In this document: positions 4,262-61,625 of the stretch, in pieces
Layout: each line of letters begins with the position of its first letter
How positions within the stretch are numbered: the first letter of the stretch is position 1
Assembly: GCA_021605075.1 (NCBI GenBank)
Contig: BPLQ01015363.1
Span: forward strand, 835,513 to 899,512
Direction of reading: 5' to 3'
Length of the DNA stretch: 64,000 nucleotides
Source: Caerostris darwini
Lineage: Eukaryota
The notes under the pieces: generated by a model
What the model was told of the DNA's origin: nothing
What the model saw: the letters and a program-made list of their open reading frames with translations, nothing else
Database searches by the model: none
Made by a program: the position numbers and the translations under genes

Positions 4262-4543
4262 ACATAGTTTCATCAACATCATTATCATCATCGGTGGCAC
4301 AACAGCCCCATGGTGAACCAAGGTGGTTTGCCTGCTGGTAGATTTCTAGACAGGAGATGTTTCCTTTTACGGGCGTAGATTGTCAATACTACGCCCAATG
4401 CTCTACAGCCATATTAGACAGGGACATACGGTTTAAAGTGGATTCCCAACCCCTACAAACATCCATGGCACCGCAGGGACTCGAACCCGAAACCAGTGGT
4501 ACCAAGAGCCAGAGCGCTAGTCACTCGGCCATCAGGTCCTGCA
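4262..4543 (-). mobile_element. tRNA-derived SINE copy of the same family, in antisense orientation inside agrin intron 1, with a (GAT)n-like tail.
   Basis: The reverse complement of 4441..4543 matches the roughly 100-nt SINE head (GCAGGACCTGATGGCCGAGTGACTAGCGCTCTGG...GGTTCGAGTCC...TGCCATGGATGTTTGTAGGGGTTGGGAATCCACTTTAAACCGTATGTCCC). The plus-strand catcattatcatcatc stretch lies at the 3' end of the element. Confidence 0.65.
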
Positions 4544-5821
4544 TCCATAGTTTATTAATACTAAATACTAATGCTTCTAAAATCAAATCTATATATTTAT
4601 ATATAATTTATTTTGATTACTTTTTTTTTTATCTCATGAGGCGAATACCCATTTTCAGAGAAATTTATTTTTATAAACTTTTGCACAATGAATTTTTTTT
4701 AGTAAAAATTTATAGTTTCAGTTAGTCTACATTTTATTACATCGATTAGCCTGTAGTGCAAAAGATGAACTTTACACCGAAATTATACTTGAATTTTTAC
4801 ATTTAGTGTTATGTATAGCCAACTGGAATGCATCATTTGGTGCGTTTTTCAACGACACGTTATCGCAATCGTTATCGTTATATTTCAATCGAATTCAATT
4901 TTATACATCATTTGATAAAACATTTAAATATAAATGCATCATTTAGTGTGTTTTTCAGTGTAATTTTTTTTTCGCTTATTAAAAGAATAAAAATCAACAA
5001 CATTTTATATATCCCCTGATTCGAAATTCAATAATTATAACAGACATTAAAACATTTAGATTTATTAACTGCTCAAAACACTCTTTATTTTAACTTTGAT
5101 ATACTTAACTAATTTATATATAAAAAAACTACAATAATATACAAGACATCAGAAATTATCTTTTTCTTTAAAAATTTGACATTTTTCATTAATGCTAAAT
5201 TGATAATTGGCAATAAATTGAGTAACTTTTCCAGGTAAAATTATAGCAATTTAATTAAATTATATTTATGCTTTCATTCATTAAGGTATTTCATATAGAT
5301 TTCAGATTTATTTAACATTTTGAAGGTTTTTTTTTTTTTTTCTTACTCTTCATTCTTATTTATCACTTCAAAGAATACATTTTCTTAATTACTAATAATT
5401 TTATTATTAAAGACATTATAGAAATCAGAATCGCAAATCAACAATTTTAATGACTTTTTATAAATAGGGTTAGGGTGTCGACCAAAAAATTACTAACTTC
5501 TGACTCCCGACTACTGAGACGAATTTTTTATACCAACAACTTTTTTTTATACTGACTCTTTTCGGTAATTTTAAGAGCTATGATCTTTAATGATCGATTT
5601 AGTAAAATCTGTGAAATAAATTCAATGACTTTTATTGAACTAATATATTTAAAAAAACAGCTTTTTTTAAATGAAGTATTTTTAAAATTAACAAAACATT
5701 GAAACTATTTTAAAATAATGTGCAAACAAAACATTGGAAGTATTTTTAAATAACGTGAAAACAAAATATTTATAAAATTTTTTAATATTTTTAAAATTCT
5801 TGTAATCTAAATTTGTTTGCA

Positions 5822-6240: not shown

Positions 6241-6430
6241 TTTATTTTACAAGAGCTGGTGTAAAGAAAGCAAAATTTTTTTTATCTTTAGCATTTCTAT
6301 TCAAAATATTTTTTTAAAAATATGAAGATAGGCACAGGTTGCGTAGTTATATAACACAAGTATTCATTTAAACCTTTCTTAAAAATAGATTTGTTTAACT
6401 TTATTAAATGTGGAAGAAAAAAACCCTTAC

Positions 6431-6848
6431 CTTTTACTGTCGCAGTAATCTTGTCCAAGTTTGGTGCGTTAATTCTGATCGTACTTGAATTAAGTCGAAA
6501 TCTCCCTGTCTCTAACTGGCTTAGAAGAAATATTTTTGTATCTTTCACAATTACCTTACTGGTGCAAATATCAGAATTACCAAAACCTTCCACCAGAAGT
6601 GATTCCCCAGGACTCAAGTGATCTCCTTTGATCACTCTCTTCACCAACACCTCACCACTGTATAAATTATCCTGGCCGCTGTATAAACGTTTGACAGTAC
6701 CAGTCAGTACAACGTCTGCAGTACTTTCCCTCACTTTTAACCTTTCCTCGGGACATTCTCTAAATAAACGCCTCCGTCGAGCTGCTGAAGAATCGAACTG
6801 GAAAATAACCAACCCCAGCAACAGCAAATACGATTTACTCAAATGCAT
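6431..6848 (-). CDS. AGRN: Agrin-like first coding exon: signal peptide plus NtA (N-terminal agrin) domain. ATG at 6848..6846. Donor GTAAGG just below 6431, phase 1.
   Basis: The ORF translates to MHLSKSYLLLLGLVIFQF...CPEERLKVRESTADVVLTGTV...LLVEGFGNSDICTSKV..DTKIFLL...LNSSTIRI. Chick and human agrin NtA has CPERELQRREEEANVVLTGTV...ISGFGDPLIC...DTRIFFV...LNSSLMRI. A hydrophobic signal peptide follows the Met. A GTAAGG donor is present on the minus strand. Confidence 0.8.
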
Positions 6849-7130
6849 ATTGGACCGAAATAACATTATGTTTACAGCATCATTTCTGCTATGCCTCAAC
6901 GAAGCTGTAGAGGGGCACTTAAGGGACCTCCGCTGCTCTACAACCGATTAGGAATGAAGTTCAGATTGAAAGAAGTGGGTCGAAAACTTCGTAGTCTGCA
7001 CACCTGGAACCTGAACACTCTGCTGCTTTCAACGTTCCACCTACGATGAATCAGTAAAACCCGTCTTTAGCCTCAGGGTATGCCGTTTATGGTATACAGC
7101 ATTCGCAACTCATTTCATTTGCACCTGTCA
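6849..7130 (-). promoter_or_regulatory. Putative agrin 5'UTR and core promoter region: a relatively GC-richer block just upstream of the start codon.
   Basis: The base composition shifts to GC-richer immediately 5' of the ATG on the minus strand. No TATA box or Inr was confidently identified. Confidence 0.2.
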
Positions 7131-7203
7131 CAATTGATTCATTTATTTAGCATAAAAGGAATATTTTGAACAGAAATCGATTGGCAAACGACAGATAAAT
7201 ATG

Positions 7204-8232: not shown

Positions 8233-8813
8233 ATAAAAAAGGCATTTATTTAAAAAATAATTTTGTAAATTTCTTTTAAAAAACAAGATTGAATAAATCA
8301 GTTTTGACAATTTTTTAAAATAAAGTACATGGTAAAATGTAAAAAGAAAGAACTCAAATTACGACTATTATTATTATTAAATTGCGACTATTCGTATGGT
8401 TATTAGTTTAAACTTATACCTCGTATTTTTTAAACTATCTGCAACTTTAATGTGAGGTTTGAATCAGATAACTTCATTAATTATAACTTTCATTTTTTAA
8501 AAGGAACATTTTTTGTAATCTACAGCTTTGATTAGAATTATGTATGACTGTTCATGTTGCACTGTATAAGACTTAACTTTATATTCAAACTATTGAGTTT
8601 ATTCATTATTTGCTTCCCATGTAAGAAAATTGCATTCTAATTTATCCGATATTTGAACTTTTCTTTTTAGCATTAACTCTACAATGGTGAAGACCTTTTG
8701 TTTATAAGCACCATCACTTCTCTTTAATTGTTTTAACGATCATTTTATTGAAAAAAAATAACAAGAAAGAATATATTAGAAATAAATATTAGAATAGAAT
8801 ATATTTGAATATA

Positions 8814-9276
8814 CAGAGTGATTATAATTAAAGTCCCACTTTCAAATTGCTGTAAAAAAAGAAACACTCGTCACAATGAGTTCAAATTTGAACTGAAGAT
8901 ACTTGAAGAAAGGGGGAACGGTATTGCATAAAAAAAAGCTCCACCGATTTTTCCCATCCAATTTGTTATGACCTTACCATGGTGGATGGATGAGCTTTCC
9001 ACTAACAGTGTCACAACTGTTGGAAGTAATTTTTCCCGTCAAAAAACCGAAACAATCAAGCACATTGATCACTACAGTTGGTTTAATGTACAACTCATAC
9101 CAATCATTGTACTTTCGATTCAAAATCCACTTTCTTTATGCCACTTACAGCGCCATCTATTAACGCACTTTGGAACTTTTTTGACGCCGTACCGTTTCCC
9201 CCTTCTTCAAGTATCTTCAGTTCAAATTTGAACTCATTGTGACAAGTGATTACTGACTTTAATTATAATCACCCTG
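8814..9276. mobile_element. MITE, about 463 bp, with about 110-bp TIRs beginning CAGAGTG/CAGGGTG and flanked by a TA duplication. It is a non-autonomous Tc1/mariner-type element.
   Basis: 8812 TA|CAGAGTGATTATAATTAAAGTCCCAC...CACAATGAGTTCAAATTTGAACTGAAGATACTTGAAGAAAGGGGGAAC is the reverse complement of ...GTTTCCCCCTTCTTCAAGTATCTTCAGTTCAAATTTGAACTCATTGTGACA...TTAATTATAATCACCCTG|TA at 9278. The terminus resembles that of the transposase relic at 24476. Confidence 0.75.
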
Positions 9277-10342
9277 TATATTCAACGCTTATCGCATGCT
9301 ATGTACTGCAATAAAGCAAATCTATTGCACCGTATTTAAAATCACCCTGTACGAAATATTTTTAAAATCTTTCTATTTTAGCCTCTTTAAATAAAAATCT
9401 ACGTGTGAAAAAAGATTTTCAAACAGAGATATTTCGAATTTATTTTGAAAATCATCCAAGAGAATTATTTTGTTATATTTACGTAAATTTCACTAAATGA
9501 ATTCTTCCGTTTGCATTGGAAATAGAAAATATGTTTTTCTGTTTCTTTAAACTAGTTATTATGAAAAAAAAAAAAAATAAAGTAGGTCAGGCGTTCGGCA
9601 TAAAACAAGACAAATTTTAATTTCTATGTAGAAATTAATATAACTTGACTATTTATCATTTTGTGTTTTATCTTATAAAAAAATTTGAATACAATTTTTA
9701 AAAAATTAATTTATCTTTCTTTAAAAAGAAACACAAAATTTGTATCGAAATTTTGCCCTCATAAAATGATTTTAAAAATGAAACAACTGAAAGAAATGTT
9801 AAAATACACAGTGAAATAATTTTTTATATGTGCTTTCAGGTAAAATAATTTTTAACCCAGGATGTAAATACAATCCTTTCAAGTTACATGTAATAAAAAC
9901 GAGAAAGATAATTTACTTTCTAATATAAATTATCTATTTATTTTCTAATATAATTTTCTTTATGTAAATTATCTTCTTAAATATAATATATATAACTAAT
10001 AATGATTTACTTTCTTGTTTTTATTACATGATAATAAAAACGAAGAAAGTAATTCATTGCATCATATCTCTTGTGCCTTTTTGTTATAAATTCACAATCA
10101 ATGTCTTTTTACTATGGTAAATTTAATACACAATAATTATGTATAAACATAATAATGCACAAAATTTTAAATATGCTTTTCATCTAAAGAACTTCATCCG
10201 AGGCAAATCATGTCAAAATCATTCTATTCTAATCGAACCTTTACACATACTATCAGATATTAATACCGTCAATTATGAAACTTTTAATATATTAAGAAAA
10301 CTACAATCTTAAATGCGTAATAAAAATTTGAAATTTGAAATA

Positions 10343-10460
10343 GCCAACGGCCGTACCATGCTGAATATACCGGTTCTCGTTAGATCACCGAAGTTAAGCA
10401 TCATTGGACGCGGTCAGTACTTGGGTGGGTGACCACCTGGGAAAACTGCGTGCCGTTGGC
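10343..10460 (+). rRNA. Full-length 5S rRNA sequence (118 nt). It is a gene or a retroposed copy and has no downstream T4+ terminator.
   Basis: The sequence is GCCAACGGCCGTACCATGCTGAATATACCGGTTCTCGTTAGATCACCGAAGTTAAGCATC...GGGTGGGTGACCACCTGGGAAAACTGCGTGCCGTTGGC. It aligns along its whole length to arthropod 5S rRNA. The helix I ends are fully complementary (GCCAACGGC / GCCGTTGGC) and the conserved CCGAAGTTAAGC box is present. It is followed by AAATTTGGG, not a T-run. Confidence 0.7.
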
Positions 10461-10467
10461 AAATTTG

Positions 10468-10753
10468 GGACCTGAATGGTGGCCGAGTGTCTAGCGCTCT
10501 GGCGCTCGGTGCCACAGGTTTCGGGTTCGAATCCCGGCGGTGCCATGGATGTTTGTAGTGGTTCGGAATCCACTTTAAGCCGTAGGTCCCGGTCTCCTAT
10601 GACTGTAAGAGCGTCACGGAGCAAAAGTCAGGCTTCTACCTACGGGTGCTCCATCACAACAGAAGCTGCTTCCTTCCCCTTCAATCATGAGTCCATATGG
10701 GCTTGTGGGCTTGGCCAGCCAAGTGGGATAAGAAACAACAAACAACAAAAAAA
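10468..10753 (+). mobile_element. tRNA-derived SINE copy. It has Pol III A and B boxes and a (AACAA)n/A-rich tail. It lies directly downstream of the 5S sequence.
   Basis: The head GGACCTGAATGGTGGCCGAGTG.CTAGCGC...GGTTCGAATCCCGGCGGTGCCATGGATGTTTGTAGTGGTTCGGAATCCACTTTAAGCCGTAGGTCCCGGTC is shared with the copies at 4262..4543 and 61340..61625. It ends in AAACAACAAACAACAAAAAAA. Confidence 0.7.
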
Positions 10754-11756
10754 TTTGAAATTGCAGAAAGAATAAACAAAAGGTAAAATCTAGGAGTACC
10801 TTCATTTAATTCCCCTACATAGAGTCAACAAAATATATTCCTTTGTTAATTCCAACACGTTATTGCACAGATGTCTCCAAATGAATACAAATATATATAA
10901 AGAATATAAATGCATTTATATTCTTGTATATATATACAAATATATACAAGACTATAAATAACCTTTCAAAATAATTACTGCACTAAATAGCTTGTTGTTG
11001 TTTTCAAACAAACCGGAAAATTGGACCTGAGGTTATTCGCAACTAGAGTAGCAGACATGTAGCAGATTCAACCAGATTCCATGTGCACTATGGAATCTGA
11101 ATACACAGTACTCACTTTGTAGTACTACAATTTAAAACTCACAACCCCAGGTATGACATTTGGAAATTTCCCCTTTTCTTACCTTCTCGAGCTCAACAAA
11201 AGGGCAATCCATTTCTAGAATAGATGAGAACATTAAAAAAATAACACTATAAAGTAAAACTATCCTAATTAATATGTCACAAATCCTTAATTTAAATCTA
11301 CAGAGATCTAATGTAAGAGAAAAAACAGCAAAGAAAAAAAATATGACTCACAATGTCACAGTAATCAGTATTGTGTGAAGAATATTGAACCGCACAATAA
11401 TAGCTGAAATTATATCTATCCAAATAATGTCATAATTCAAAACTTTTCAATATTTTATTTCCTGTGAAAACATAGCAAAATTTTCCCTAATCATAAAAAA
11501 AAAAATCTCATTTAAAAAAAACGTATGGTAATCTCAAACCGCGTATGCATCAATTATATATATGCACAATGTGATTAAAATGTTCAGTGAGAATATATAA
11601 TGCGAAAAAAAAAAAAAAAGAACTTTTAGTGGGAGACACCTGCATCTTGCAGAATAATATTCACCATGGTGCTGGATTTTATACTCCACGAAAAAACATT
11701 TATTCTCAACAATAGAGGGCACTACTGTAGCTAACTCCATGGAAGTGGCACAAGCG

Positions 11757-16559: not shown

Positions 16560-17187
16560 CAAAGGCGCTTTTCAGTTTATTTCGTGCTGTTACATATTTT
16601 ATGCTCAATACAGTATTTGAAAAATTGGCCAAGCATCTTGGACAAATTGGGGCAGGATATAGTTTCCAAACTAGCTGTTTTGGACCAGATCGGATCGGTG
16701 TGCTTGCAGTGGATTCCCTCCCATGTGGGCATCTACGGAAATGAAATTGCTGATCTGCTCGCTAGGGAAGGTTGCGAACTTCCCAAAGCTTCTTCTTCCA
16801 ATCTGTTAGCTTCAGAGGTTCATTCCATGACTTTAGCCAGAGTGAATACCTCTTCGAGGTCGCCACCAATTCATGCATGGTACGCCACTAAATATCCTGG
16901 TATGTCCATACAGTGCTCCTGTCCTAGACCTGCTCAGACGGTTTTAGCTAGACTAAGGACTGGCCACATTAAGAGTTTGACCTTCAATGGAGACGAGAAG
17001 ACATATGCCCTTTGTCATTGTTCGACCATCGCATCTCCCTCTCATCTCATAGATTGTATTGGTGCCACTGTGAGGCAACTGTTGAATGAGGGGAGGACAG
17101 TTTACGATCTATTGATGCAGCATGATTACTGGACTTGGTTTAGGATTCTAAATCAAGGGGATAAGCAACAACAACAACAACAACATA
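16560..17187 (+). mobile_element. 5'-truncated non-LTR retrotransposon (LINE) 3' end. It carries an RNase H domain, a C-terminal Cys/His motif and a (CAA)n tail.
   Basis: ORF 16497..17267 reads ...LQWIPSHVGIYGNEIADLLARE... (RNase H WIPSHxGIxGNExAD) and ...ARLRTGHIKSLTFNGDEKTYALCHCSTIASPSHLIDC. It ends in CAACAACAACAACAACAA. Confidence 0.7.
17167..17185 (+). repeat. (CAA)6 microsatellite forming the 3' tail of the LINE fragment.
   Basis: caacaacaacaacaacaa lies at the end of the LINE ORF. The shorter duplicate copy has (CAA)3 at about 18125. Confidence 0.8.
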
Positions 17188-17189
17188 TT

Positions 17190-17696
17190 TTATGCATTGA
17201 AACAAAATGTGTTCAACTGTTTCCGGAATTTTGCAGATCAGGCATAATGGATATGAAGTCAGGCTAAATCTATGGAATTTAGCATTGCTAGGATATGTGC
17301 GAAATCTGGAAATAAGAATGTCTTCTTTTCGATGATTAGGAAAAAGTCTGTGAGAAGGTTTAATACCATTCAGATGACTGCATTCCTGATCATATTTACC
17401 ACCCATCCACTGCTCTGTTGCTTTTAGATGTGCTTTCTTTTTTGTTGAAATATGAGAACTGCCGGCGATACCCAATAAGAAATATTATTGTATCTGCTGC
17501 AGATTTTGAGAAGAAATCGGCTAGTTCATTTTCTGTAATACCAACTTGCCCTGAGGACCAGATGAATTCGATGATAAAATGCTATTGTAAAGATCTTGAA
17601 GTTTATTGCAAATGAACTGAATGATACGATCGGAATGGATATTACAATTCTGTAATGCCAATAGAACTGATAGACTGTTTGTGAGGATAATATATT
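17190..17696 (-). mobile_element. 3' part of a different LINE on the minus strand, with RNase H and a Cys motif. It abuts the plus-strand LINE tail-to-tail.
   Basis: Minus-strand frames read IEFIWSSGQVGITENELADFFSKSA (RNase H) and HRLFPNHRKEDILISRFRTYPSNAKFHRFSLTSYPLCLICKIPETVEHILFQC. Confidence 0.6.
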
Positions 17697-18135
17697 TATA
17701 ATTGCTGATCTGCTCGCTAGGGAAGGTTGCGAACTTCCCAAAGCTTCTTCTTCCAATCTGTTAGCTTCAGAGGTTCATTCCATGACTTTAGCCAGAGTGA
17801 ATACCTCTTGGAGGTCGCCACCAATTCATGCATGGTACGCCGCTAAATATCCTGGTATGTCCATACAGTGCCCCTGTCCTAGACCTGCTCAGACGGCTTT
17901 AGCTAGACTAAGGACTGGCCACATTAAGAGTTTGACCTTCAATGGAGACGAGAAGACATATGCCCTTTGTCATTGTTCGACCATCGCATCTCCCTCTCAT
18001 CTCATAGATTGTATTGGTGCCTCTGTGAGGCAACTGTTGAATGAGGGGAGGACAGTTTACGATCTATTGATACAGCATGATCTACTGGACTTGGTTTAGG
18101 ATTCTAAATCAAGGGGATAAGCAACAACAACATAT
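17697..18135 (+). mobile_element. Second, shorter 5'-truncated copy of the same LINE 3' end. It is about 95% identical to 16745..17185 and lies inside a minus-strand LINE.
   Basis: The direct repeat of AATTGCTGATCTGCTCGCTAGGGAAGGTTGCGAACTTCCCAAAGC...GGATTCTAAATCAAGGGGATAAGCAACAACAACA is present. ORF 17782..18099 duplicates the ORF of the first copy. Confidence 0.75.
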
Positions 18136-35089: not shown

Positions 35090-36000
35090 AAAAACAAGCC
35101 GAATTAGCATTATCAAATCAAAAGTAATCAAACGGTTTCGTAGAATCAAGCGCTTTGCATATATTCTGAATATTTCAAGACAGACAGTTTCTACGCTATG
35201 GAGGCAATTTCAGAACGATGTAATTTTTGTAAAAAGGCCTGGACAAGGTTGTAAACGAATGAGAACTGCTTCTGAAGATCGATAACTGGCAATAACTACC
35301 CGTCGTAACAGGAAGTTTACTGCTCTCTAGTTAAGTTCAAAGCTTGCAGCCCCCATGGGAAATGCTTTATCACGGCAAGCTGCATACAGAAGGCTTAATA
35401 AAAAATGCCTTTATGCTAGAAAGCAGAGAGTATATGTTTCACTATCTTCACAACGCTTTAATTGGTGCAAAGAACATAACTGGAATGAACACCATTGGTC
35501 CCATGCTCTCTTTACTGATGAGTCGAGGTTTAGTTTTACAGGTGATTCTAAACGTGCTTACATTTGTATTGAGTCAAGAACACGAAGTTATCCCTCGAAC
35601 ATCGTGGAACATGACCGTTTCAGTAGTGGAGGTGTGATAATATGGGGAGGAATAATGATCGATGAACGGACGGTCCTATACGTTTTCAACAGCGGATCTG
35701 TGACAGCCCAGAGCTATAGGAATGAGGTTTTAGAGCCTTGTGTATGAGTTTTCAGAGGTGCATATGGATCTTACTTTTATTTATAAACAATAATGCTCAT
35801 CCACATCGAGCAAACCTCGTTACTGAATTCCTTCAAAGTGAAGACATTCAGCGAATACCATGGGCAGCAAACTCTCCTGATCTTAACCTAATAGAGAGCT
35901 TATGGGACTACCTTGGAAGAGCAATTGCACATAGACATCCTCCTGCTAGAAATATAACTACTCTGAAGATGTCATTGCTGAGGAATGGAGCTTAATTCCC
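35090..36000 (+). mobile_element. Tc1-like transposase relic with frameshifts. No TIRs were identified.
   Basis: Frames read RPGQGCKRMRTASEDR.LAITTRRNRKFTA, ...WCKEHNWNEHHWSHALFTDESRFSF...GGVIIWGGI..., and ...NNNAHPHRANLVTEFLQSEDIQRIPWAANSPDLNLIESLWDYL. This is a DDE Tc1 family. Confidence 0.7.
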
Positions 36001-49167: not shown

Positions 49168-50053
49168 CAGGTGGACTGAAACGTTCGTAGGCTGACACAT
49201 AGATAGCGCTACTAGTATTAAATCCATATGATTTTTAGTTAGCCCTAACCTTCAAAAGACAAATGTATAAATTTGACAGCTGTTGCACTATTAGTATGTG
49301 TTATAGCATTTTATAGTGAAGTTATAGCATTTTTAGTGTTCATCACGTGCAGTCCATTCGGCTGACTGTCGATTGGACTCCGGTGTGAAATGATGGAGCC
49401 ATGTTTCTTCCATTGTCACATATCGACGCAATAATTCGGGTTTATTTAGATTGAACAGCTCTAAACACTGCTTAGAATCATCAATTCGTTGTTGTTTTGG
49501 GTCGATTGTGAGCTCTGCGCGGCACCCACTTTGAACAGGCTTTCGCATATCCAAATATTCATTCACGATATGTCCAACACGTTCCTTTGAAATCTTTAGG
49601 GTCTCAGCTATCTTAATCAACTTCCCTTTATGGTTACCAGAAATTATTTTGTAGACTTTTTTGATGTTTTCGTCGGTAACAGCCTCTTTGGGGCGTCCAC
49701 TGCGTGCATCGTCCTCGGTGCTCATTTCGCCTCGTTTAAATTTAGCAAACCACTTCTCTACGGTTGATTTTCCTGGTGCAAAGTCCGAATAATGTTTATC
49801 AAGCCAAGCCTTGGCTTCAATAGTATTTTTTTCGCCAAAAAGCAATGCTTTATTAACACACGAAATTCCTTTTTATCCATTTTTTCAAACTAACAAAAGT
49901 TGCTTCACTAAAAATGCCATAACTCACATACTAATAGTGCAACAGCTGTCAAATATATACACATGTCTTTTGAAGGTTAGGGCTAATTAAAAATCATTAA
50001 TACTAGTAGCTCCATCTATGTGTCAGCCTACGAACATGTCAGTCCAACTGTTA
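49168..50053 (-). mobile_element. Internal-deletion mariner derivative. It has about 150-bp inverted terminal arms flanking only the N-terminal 170 aa of a mariner transposase.
   Basis: 49168..49320 is the near-perfect reverse complement of 49900..50053 (CAGGTGGACTGAAACGTTCGTAGGCTGACACATAGATAGCGCTACTAGTATTAA...). The internal ORF 49333..49845 (-) reads ...WFAKFKRGEMSTEDDARSGRPKEAVTDENIKKV...WLHHFTPESNRQSAEW. This is the mariner HTH N-terminus, and it stops before the catalytic domain. A T21 run precedes the left arm. Confidence 0.7.
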
Positions 50054-54985: not shown

Positions 54986-56270
54986 TAGGTTGGGGAAAAA
55001 GAAATCCATTATTTTTATATGAACTTCAGGACTTTATTTAACATGCTTCGGATTGTCCGATTTGGGTCAAATATGCACCGTTTTGTTGTATGATTTGTTG
55101 CCATTTTAAAGGTAACTTCATAATGCCTCTCTCATAGAAGTCCTGGTCTCTATTTGCAAAAAACTCTAGTAGTCGATTTTCACAATCCTCCCTAGATGCC
55201 AATTTTTTATCATTAAAGAAATTTTGCAATGCAAGAAAAAGATGATAATCGCTTGGTGCCAAGTCCGGACTGTATGGCGGATGCATTAAAACTTCCCAAC
55301 CAAGCTCCCGAAGTTTCTGGCGAGTCACTGTAGATGTGTGTAGCCTAGCGTTGTCCTGGTGGAACACGACACCTCTCCTGTTGGCCAATTCTGGCCGTTT
55401 CTGGTCAATCGCTATCTTCAAACGGTCAGTTGTTGACAGTAGAGATCAGAATTTAGCGTTTGGCCATATGGAAGCAACTCATAATAAATAATCCCCTTCC
55501 AGTCCCACCAAATGCATAACAGAACCTTCCTGGCCGTTAGTCCTGGTTTGGCCACCGTTTGAGGTGCTTCACCGCTCTTTGACCACGATCGTTTTCGCAC
55601 AGGGTTATCGTATGTGATCCATTTCTCATCTCCAGTCACCATCTGTTTAAGAAATGGGTCTATCTCATTCCGTTTGGCCAAGGCTTCGTAGATGGAAATT
55701 CGATCCATCATGTTCTTTTCTGTTAATTGGTGTGGCACCCAAACATCGAGCTTCTTTTTGAATCCAGCTTTGTGAAAATGGTTTAAAACAGTTTTATGGT
55801 CGATTTTTAGCTCCTGGGCGATGTTACGACTGCTAACATGCCGGTCAACTTCGATCATTTCTCCGATTTTATCGACATTTTCGACGACCGGCCTACCTGT
55901 GCGAGGTGCATCTTTAACATCAAAAATTCCTGAACGGAATCTACGAAACCAAAATTGCACATAATTGGCTGTTACAGTATCGGAACCATGAACACCATTC
56001 ACAATTTTAGCCGCCTGGCTTGCATTTTCGCCTTTGTCAAAGAAAAACTGTAAAATGTACCGAATTATCTCTTTGTTCACTTCCATTTTTAACACCCTGT
56101 AACTCCCAACTGAATGGACCAAACAAAAAACAGAAGAAGAATTATTTTAGTACGAAGTGCCACCTTTCTAACGAGCATGAATCTGAAATTGTTTAATTGA
56201 TACTTTACGTGATATCGATCACTACAGCCATCTATCGAAAAAATAATGGATTTCTTTTTCCCCAACCTAA
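54986..56270 (-). mobile_element. Near-intact mariner element of the cecropia/Hsmar1-like subfamily, 1285 bp. It has about 31-bp terminal inverted repeats (TIRs) and TA target-site duplications. It sits in a TEP1 intron.
   Basis: The left end is TA|TTAGGTTGGGGAAAAAGAAATCCATTATTTT. The right end is AAAATAATGGATTTCTTTTTCCCCAACCTAA|TA, its exact reverse complement. The internal transposase ORFs lie on the minus strand. Confidence 0.85.
55038..56086 (-). pseudogene. Mariner transposase CDS with a single frameshift near 55420. Otherwise it is full-length, about 345 aa.
   Basis: ORF 55418..56122 reads MEVNKEIIRYILQFFFDKGENASQAAKIVNGVHGSDTVTANYVQFWFRRFRSGIFDVKDAPRTGRP...WITYDNPVRKRSWS...CIWWDWKGIIYYELLP. 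It continues out of frame in ORF 55038..55421 (KIAIDQKRPELANRRGVVFHQDNARLHTS...PPYSPDLAPSDYHLF). This is a DD34D-type catalytic domain. Confidence 0.8.
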
Positions 56271-61339: not shown

Positions 61340-61625
61340 GGCGCCTGATGGCCGAGTGGCTAGCGCTCTGTCGCTCGGTATCACAGGTATCGGGTTCAAA
61401 TCCCGGCGTTGCCATGAGTGTTTGTAGTAGTTCGGAATCCACTTTAAACAGTAGGTCCCGGTCCTAATAGGATCGTGAGCGTTGCGGGGGCATTGTTACT
61501 ACGCGTCCGTGGCTTATCTTCAAGTTACACGTGCCCCCTGGGTAATGCAAAGTGAGTAACGTCGGTGCAGCTCTTATGGCATAAAAAGATCACGGTCTAT
61601 TTGCCAGCTGCATTAAAAAGAGAGT
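61340..61625 (+). mobile_element. tRNA-derived SINE copy of the same family, inside a TEP1 intron, with an 11-bp target-site duplication.
   Basis: The head GGCGCCTGATGGCCGAGTGGCTAGCGCTCTGTCGCTCGGTATCACAGGTATCGGGTTCAAATCCCGGCGTTGCCATGAGTGTTTGTAGTAGTTCGGAATCCACTTTAAACAGTAGGTCCCGGTCC matches the family. The direct repeat ATTACTAAATA occurs at 61329..61339 and again at 61626..61636. Confidence 0.7.

Follow-up and report, generated by a model that had tools for sequence, protein, structure and literature searches.

The stretch of DNA analysed here (the window) comprises 64,000 nucleotides from the spider Caerostris darwini (GenBank assembly GCA_021605075.1, contig BPLQ01015363.1, positions 835,513 to 899,512, forward strand). 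The window is AT-rich animal DNA with a GC content of 29%, and it contains an agrin exon, remnants of mariner and Tc1 elements, and fragments of long interspersed elements (LINEs). At 10331..10761, a full-length 5S rRNA sequence is followed in the same orientation by a full-length tRNA-derived short interspersed element (SINE), and the two are bracketed by an exact direct repeat, the putative target-site duplication (TSD). The GC content of the 5S and SINE parts was 54–55% (5S, 55%) vs 21–30% in the flanks. The block consists of the following features:

10331..10341 (+), left flanking direct repeat AAATTTGAAAT, putative TSD; exact 11-mer, with another register at 10322..10335
10342..10342 (+), single A between the TSD and the 5' end of the 5S, presumably untemplated or a filler of the 5' junction
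10343..10460 (+), full-length 5S rRNA sequence, placed by RF00001 and by its fold; helix I = GCCAACGGC/GCCGTTGGC
10461..10466 (+), linker AAATTT, read from the sequence; together with G 10467 it gives AAATTTG, the same as the start of the TSD
10467..10750 (+), full-length tRNA-derived SINE, delimited by the alignment of copies, with a LINE-like tail
10751..10761 (+), right flanking direct repeat AAATTTGAAAT, exact 11-mer

The window was scanned with Rfam, and the 5S rRNA model RF00001 matched at 10343..10461 (+) with 99.1 bits (gathering score 38) over model positions 1–120, untruncated. No other family was found above threshold in the 64 kb. The 3' end of the 5S (...GCCGTTGGC) was placed at position 10460. 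When the 5S was folded alone, the minimum free energy structure was the canonical three-way junction, in which helix I is perfectly paired over 9 bp (−50.1 kcal/mol, z = −3.8), in agreement with the preliminary description of this DNA, in which a complete 5S with an intact helix I was claimed. Neither Rfam nor blastn detected a second 5S in the 64 kb. A bona fide tandem 5S array, named in that description as an observation that would speak against retroposition, was thus ruled out by the single copy in the window.

RNA polymerase III (Pol III) terminates within a T-run, and 5S genes normally have one directly 3'. TTTT was absent throughout 10343..10900, and the earlier claim that the 5S lacks a T-run terminator was thereby confirmed. 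When the SINE was removed in silico, the 3' flank of the 5S (AAATTTGAAATTGCAGAAAG...) was still without a T4 terminator. The 5S copy is most likely not a working gene, since it is single, belongs to no array, has no terminator even minus the SINE, and is bounded by a duplication. The other spider loci (155 kb) contained no 5S, so they provided no canonical spider 5S gene or 3' flank for comparison, and nothing usable was found in the literature on spider 5S rDNA.

The SINE is composed of an apparently tRNA-like head at approximately 10467..10546, where A and B boxes (TGGCCGAGTG and GGTTCGAATCC) are visible, a shared core extending to approximately 10612, a body, and a LINE-derived tail at approximately 10686..10750, ending in (AAC)n A4. 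A T-arm and an acceptor end like those of a tRNA are also present in the head; the T-arm was matched weakly by the mascRNA model of Rfam (E = 0.0064), and nothing was reported for the head by ARAGORN or the Rfam tRNA model. The head and core (~140 bp) recurred in the window at 4539..4400 (−, 86%) and 61346..61463 (+, 89%), as well as in at least four copies in a 19-kb locus of the sister species C. extrusa (BPLR01013867.1, hereafter L008). This locus is unusually SINE-dense and carried no 5S; its members of the SINE superfamily numbered at least six, and in four of them the 5' end was recognisable. The two related SINEs of the window are:

4271..4540 (−), related SINE, no 5S; own 3' module with a (GAT)n-like tail; TSD AAACTATG[G/T]ATGC, 12/13 matching
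61340..61625 (+), related SINE, no 5S; third 3' module; 11-bp TSD ATTACTAAATA

In both copies, the TSD sits directly against the SINE head; their lack of a 5S had been stated before. Other 5'-intact copies start with AGGACCTGA (window 4540 and L008 copy b), GGCGCCTGA (window 61340), or GGGGCCTGA (L008 copy c). In the composite, the SINE reads GGACCTGA... directly after AAATTTG (10461..10467), and homology with the 5'-intact copies places its first nucleotide at G 10467; the linker is therefore AAATTT. The AAATTTG spacer of the preliminary description was retained, at 10461..10467 and not from 10462, and the boundaries given there for the SINE (10468..10753) were corrected to 10467 and 10750, a 1-nt shift at the linker; otherwise, every feature of that description was confirmed to within 1 nt. 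The three window copies have a common head and core and three unrelated 3' halves, with tails that are (GAT)n-like, (AAC)nA4, or ...TTAAAAAGAGAGT. As one head is joined to three different 3' modules, module exchange is common in this lineage, and the copies probably represent a modular SINE superfamily that uses several LINE partners.

A candidate for the LINE that supplied the tail of the composite was found approximately 6 kb downstream:

16605..17182 (+), candidate partner LINE, 5'-truncated; Pfam RNase_H E = 6e-5; 3' end ...CAAGGGGATAAG(CAA)6

The LINE fragment is flanked by a 13-bp TSD (ACATATTTTATGC) at 16592..16604 and 17183..17195. The last ~65 nt of the SINE (...CATGAGTCCATATGGGCTTGTGGGCTTGGCCAGCCAAGTGGGATAAGAAACAACAAACAAC...) aligned to its 3' end with a score of 41, whereas shuffled sequences gave a mean of 15.7 ± 2.2 and none of the 500 shuffles reached 41. 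Both elements end in (CAA/AAC)n. Homologous LINE 3' ends were detected in Nephila pilipes (L006) and Araneus ventricosus (L005, L007), and the SINE tail aligned to these too. Judged from the sequences, the mobilising LINE is likely an RNase H-bearing, (CAA)n-tailed element, and the tail shared by SINE and LINE is what we would class as a 'stringent' arrangement.

The (CAA)n-tailed LINE fragment is seemingly nested in another LINE on the minus strand (window 16592..17475), whose zf-RVT-like open reading frame (ORF) at 17140..17475 runs into the (TTG)n of the insert. A second, near-identical LINE 3' ORF (MTLARVNTSWRSPPIHAWYA...) is located at 17782..18099 (+), ~950 bp downstream of the first (16827..17267), and may stem from either duplication in situ or a separate insertion.

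The sequence AAATTTGAAAT occurs in the window at 10324, 10331, and 10751 only. The copies at 10331..10341 and 10751..10761 bracket the block exactly, and AAATTTG is found again at the internal junction, both as previously described. To estimate the chance of such a repeat, a 410-bp element was positioned at random in the window, and generous offsets were allowed at its boundaries; exact repeats of at least 11 nt anchored at the boundaries were obtained in 10 of 20,000 placements (~5e-4). A repeat due to pure chance in an AT-rich background, which the preliminary description had mentioned as another observation that could overturn its proposal, was rejected by this simulation. The local low complexity is real, as AAATTTG stands in tandem in the left flank (AAATTTG-AAATTTG-AAAT), and the 5S is intact in both sequence and fold. 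These two features would suit a genuine dispersed 5S gene with a SINE that landed at its 3' end, the repeat being a low-complexity coincidence. This explanation is highly unlikely given the rarity of the repeat by chance, the missing T4 terminator even after SINE removal, and the single 5S without an array in 64 kb. The same low probability includes an assembly artefact; a mis-join would not yield exact TSDs.

The block thus comprises a complete sense 5S (model 1–120), then AAATTT, then a 5'-complete SINE, i.e., two transcripts in the same orientation. From the components and the way in which they are ordered and oriented, the flanking repeat, the tail match between SINE and LINE, and the absence of a terminator, we infer a chimeric retrocopy that originated in one target-primed reverse-transcription event, with the 5S transcript and the SINE retroposed together; we give this reading about an even chance of being correct. 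The reverse transcriptase of the RNase H-bearing (CAA)n LINE would have recognised the LINE-derived 3' tail of the tRNA-derived SINE RNA and, with the nicked bottom strand of the target (...CAAATTT-3') as primer, extended the cDNA up to the 5' end of the SINE. It would then have gone on to a 5S primary transcript with an AAAUUU trailer, via a template switch or an earlier RNA ligation, and the product A + 5S + AAATTT + SINE + (AAC)nA4 would have been integrated between the 11-bp TSDs AAATTTGAAAT. Hitch-hiking of this kind is the simplest way to copy a 5S, because the 5S alone is without a LINE-type tail. A single event gives a TSD of typical length and needs no tail-less retroposition. It also agrees with the route published for HaSE3 and the vertebrate 5S + tRNA heads (PMC3272025, PMC4824008) and with the exchange of 3' modules among the SINEs of the window. 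Twin priming was rejected, since it would invert one part and both parts here are sense. More generally, the earlier conclusion that the 5S was mobilised by a LINE, with or beside the SINE, was upheld by the non-random repeat, the match of the SINE tail to a LINE 3' end, and the lack of both array and terminator.

The length of the outer repeat was compared with the clear TSDs of LINEs and SINEs in the window and in the related spider loci, where dispersed SINE copies have TSDs of their own:

LINE fragment, window, 13 bp
LINE, N. pilipes (L006), 13 bp
LINE, A. ventricosus (L005), 12 bp
SINE copy 4271..4540 (−), window, 13 bp
SINE copy 61340..61625 (+), window, 11 bp
SINE copy b, C. extrusa (L008), 11–13 bp

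These lengths favour the 11-bp repeat around the whole block over a duplication of 6–7 bp around the SINE alone. The shorter duplication has to be considered because the internal junction (GCCGTTGGCAAATTTGGGACCTGA) presents AAATTT(G) beside the 11-bp outer repeat and is compatible also with a 6–7-bp TSD around the SINE only. In that case, two successive insertions occurred at one nick site, a history that we regard as the main rival and as less likely. In one order, a 5S transcript (...GGCAAAUUU-3') would anneal by its AAAUUU to the nicked ...AAATTT-3' and leave a tail-less copy with an 11-bp TSD, and the SINE would later enter the regenerated nick directly 3' of the 5S, duplicating AAATTT(G). 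In the reverse order, the SINE would come first with a 7-bp TSD, followed by the 5S into the left copy of this TSD; this requires five extra nucleotides, four of which would match the flank by chance. With two hits, no coincidence is needed for any of the AAATTTG copies, as the linker would be the left-hand TSD of the SINE, and priming by a 6-bp microhomology would account for the missing tail after the 5S. The SINE superfamily is dense in Caerostris, as the copy number in the 19 kb of L008 indicates. Sequential insertions that mimic chimeras are also a recognised problem, and multi-species alignments are needed to separate the two (PMC13174262). However, both insertions must have hit one and the same phosphodiester bond independently, the TSD of the SINE would measure 6–7 bp vs 11–13 bp in six of the six clear LINE/SINE TSDs, and a 5S RNA without a tail would have had to serve as template for a reverse transcriptase whose partner SINEs have a specific tail derived from the LINE. 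Both histories proposed in the preliminary description, the single chimera and the sequential insertions, still stand, with the TSD lengths in favour of the single event.

Several points weigh against the single chimeric event. The linker AAATTT(G) is identical to the first 6–7 nt of the TSD, for which the chance is ~1e-3 to 1e-2 (outside the locus, AAATTTG has a frequency of 5.0e-4 per position, and P(TTT|AAA) = 0.055), and simple template switching does not predict this identity. Owing to the tandem AAATTTG in the left flank, the exact boundaries of the block are ambiguous: in a second register, the 14-mer AAAAATTTGAAATT is repeated at 10322..10335 and 10749..10762, leaving 7 extra nucleotides before the 5S. 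The two TSD registers predict the pre-insertion site to be ...AAATTTGAAATTTGAAATTGCAG... or ...AAAAATTTGAAATTGCAG...; the flanks of the block had no other copies as a repeat in the window, and hence there was no paralogous empty site. Finally, the trailer in the proposed mechanism is a candidate only. We infer that the primary 5S transcript, with its 3' trailer and part of the U-run, is a plausible source of the linker, which need not be duplicated target, because AAAUUU resembles a short trailer with a partial U-run, as expected if Pol III stops within the T-run that follows 5S genes; this predicts a canonical 5S 3' flank GGCAAATTTT....

The identity of the linker and the TSD start could be accounted for by microhomology priming, which is possible because AAATTT is palindromic, i.e., its own reverse complement, and which is compatible with either history. 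In a variant of the single event with three templates, the cDNA would first copy AAATTTG from the target and then capture the 5S trailer by the same microhomology. This variant would reconcile both sets of facts and is more complex.

The block bears type-1 (5S) and type-2 (tRNA) promoter regions, has no T4 run, and ends in a LINE tail. Judged from these elements, it has the parts from which a composite SINE might arise. An ordinary copy of an established, undescribed araneid composite SINE family (5S head, complete tRNA-SINE, and LINE tail), transcribed from a master copy and retroposed whole as one unit, would likewise contain all SINE parts with no T4 run within 418 nt, and such families have parallels in HaSE3 and in the vertebrate 5S + partial-tRNA heads. 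We consider this origin distinctly improbable. In the ~83 kb of Caerostris DNA covered (the window and L008, far too little to speak for the whole genome), six further SINEs have an intact 5' end and none of them has a 5S head; the nearly undiverged 5S (99 bits) fits a fresh capture; and the identity of the linker with the TSD start would still be a coincidence. These copies argue against the 5S as the normal head of the SINE family, and they remain compatible with a minor 5S-headed subfamily. It is also improbable that the locus gave rise to, or belongs among the first members of, a dual-promoter SINE family of Caerostris or Araneidae that has not been described and that combines a complete 5S with a complete tRNA-SINE.

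Relatives of the composite were also sought more widely. In four other araneoid species (136 kb), neither a SINE copy nor a 5S was present. An ORF spanning the junction (10394..10624, −) had no word-sharing relative among 5.8 billion proteins. With HMMER over 1.84 billion representatives, its only close match was CEXT_788541 of C. extrusa, in which the similarity ends at the SINE 5' end, so that no relative spanning the junction was obtained, a further point against a composite family; the other match was an unrelated repeat protein and was discarded. CEXT_788541, annotated as a 'hypothetical protein' of 95 aa (L008 10001..10288), is an antisense reading of the SINE head and its flank, and is very likely an annotation artefact. 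The 5S–SINE junction pattern gave two matches in the JGI metagenomes, which were GC-rich, apparently bacterial, and unlike 5S or SINE, and these were rejected. A 5S motif scan found nothing in GTDB genomes or IMG/VR.

The exon at 6297..6899 (−) encodes an agrin NtA domain with 100% identity to CDAR_118671 of Caerostris darwini; the next best matches were from other araneoid spiders. The agrin loci of Larinioides sclopetarius (L001) and Trichonephila clavipes (L002) contained neither 5S nor SINE, and only the exon and ~300 bp upstream of it were alignable, so that as orthologous empty sites they were uninformative. No C. extrusa member was present in the 90% cluster of CDAR_118671. Just upstream of the exon, ~150 bp (window 7037..7187) are ~73% conserved across Caerostris, Larinioides (9716..9868 of its locus), and Trichonephila (5127..5256), and may be a promoter or 5'-untranslated region element, the remaining intergenic DNA being unalignable. 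To the left of the composite, inverted repeats with arms at 8805..8936 and 9177..9285 (75% identical) and, at 9887..10058, a palindromic sequence (up to 90% over 60 bp) may be elements resembling miniature inverted-repeat transposable elements. Remnants of Mos1/mariner-type transposases were found at 49333..49845 (−), 55038..56122 (−), and 35355..35747 (+), the copy at 55 kb being divided into two ORFs by a frameshift, and a probable Tc1-like fragment had no Pfam match.

What is usually seen of the birth of 5S-headed SINEs is the amplified and reworked end product. If the single chimeric event is true, the locus would instead preserve a raw intermediate, in which a fresh, complete 5S is joined to a complete SINE, and which derives from a LINE clade other than L1. 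If it were a founder, it would offer a living view of the step to AmnSINE1- or HaSE3-type elements, before the trimming of the tRNA head. The AAATTT of junction and target hints that the choice of the RNA to be captured may be helped by microhomology between a U-tailed Pol III transcript end and either the nicked target or the nascent cDNA. Most likely, the block is one dead copy, and in that case it would have no consequence for the host.

This kind of event is already known, and what is new is a spider example in which a palindrome, AAATTT, stands at the junction as well as at the target, a detail suggestive of the mechanism. The mammalian bipartite LINE-1 chimeras (U6, U3, 5S, or Alu with LINE-1) resemble the spider block in having a small Pol III RNA at the 5' end, a LINE-recognised tail at the 3' end, and, on the single-event reading, one pair of TSDs around both parts. 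The preliminary description had likened the block to U6-L1 and 5S-L1 chimeras alike. The first comparison holds, as U6/LINE-1 and Alu/LINE-1 chimeras are sense and full-length (PMC13174262), like the 5' part of the spider block. The second is imperfect, since most 5S/LINE-1 chimeras in humans are truncated and antisense (PMC13174262), whereas the spider 5S is complete and sense. Unlike the mammalian chimeras in general, the block is found in a spider, its LINE is RNase H-bearing with a (CAA)n tail and is not L1, its 3' partner is a complete SINE rather than a LINE, and its linker repeats the start of the TSD.

In Helicoverpa armigera, HaSE3 is a 5S-derived SINE that has its body and tail in common with the tRNA-derived HaSE1, and a template switch from SINE RNA to 5S rRNA was proposed as its origin (PMC3272025). 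HaSE3 and the spider block are alike in their arthropod hosts and in the combination of a 5S head, a tRNA-SINE body, and a LINE tail. They differ in that HaSE3 is multi-copy and its 5S replaces the tRNA head, while the spider block keeps a complete tRNA head and is known from one copy. Template switching from SINE RNA to 5S rRNA is also the published explanation for the 5S + tRNA heads of vertebrate SINEs (PMC4824008). These composite heads (AmnSINE1, SINE3, and the OS-SINE1 group of DeuSINEs) are, unlike the spider block, old and amplified, with a partial tRNA and a core of the Deu type. The spider SINE core was not linked to Deu or to any other named domain, no comparison with named SINE core domains having been made. 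By analogy, the block would be placed, in its mechanism, among the bipartite chimeric retrocopies, U6/LINE-1 and Alu/LINE-1 being the nearest to it, and in its outcome, it would resemble the presumed ancestor of HaSE3 and of the vertebrate 5S + partial-tRNA heads. It differs from the known systems in the host clade, the LINE clade, the completeness of both modules, and the identity of the linker with the TSD start.

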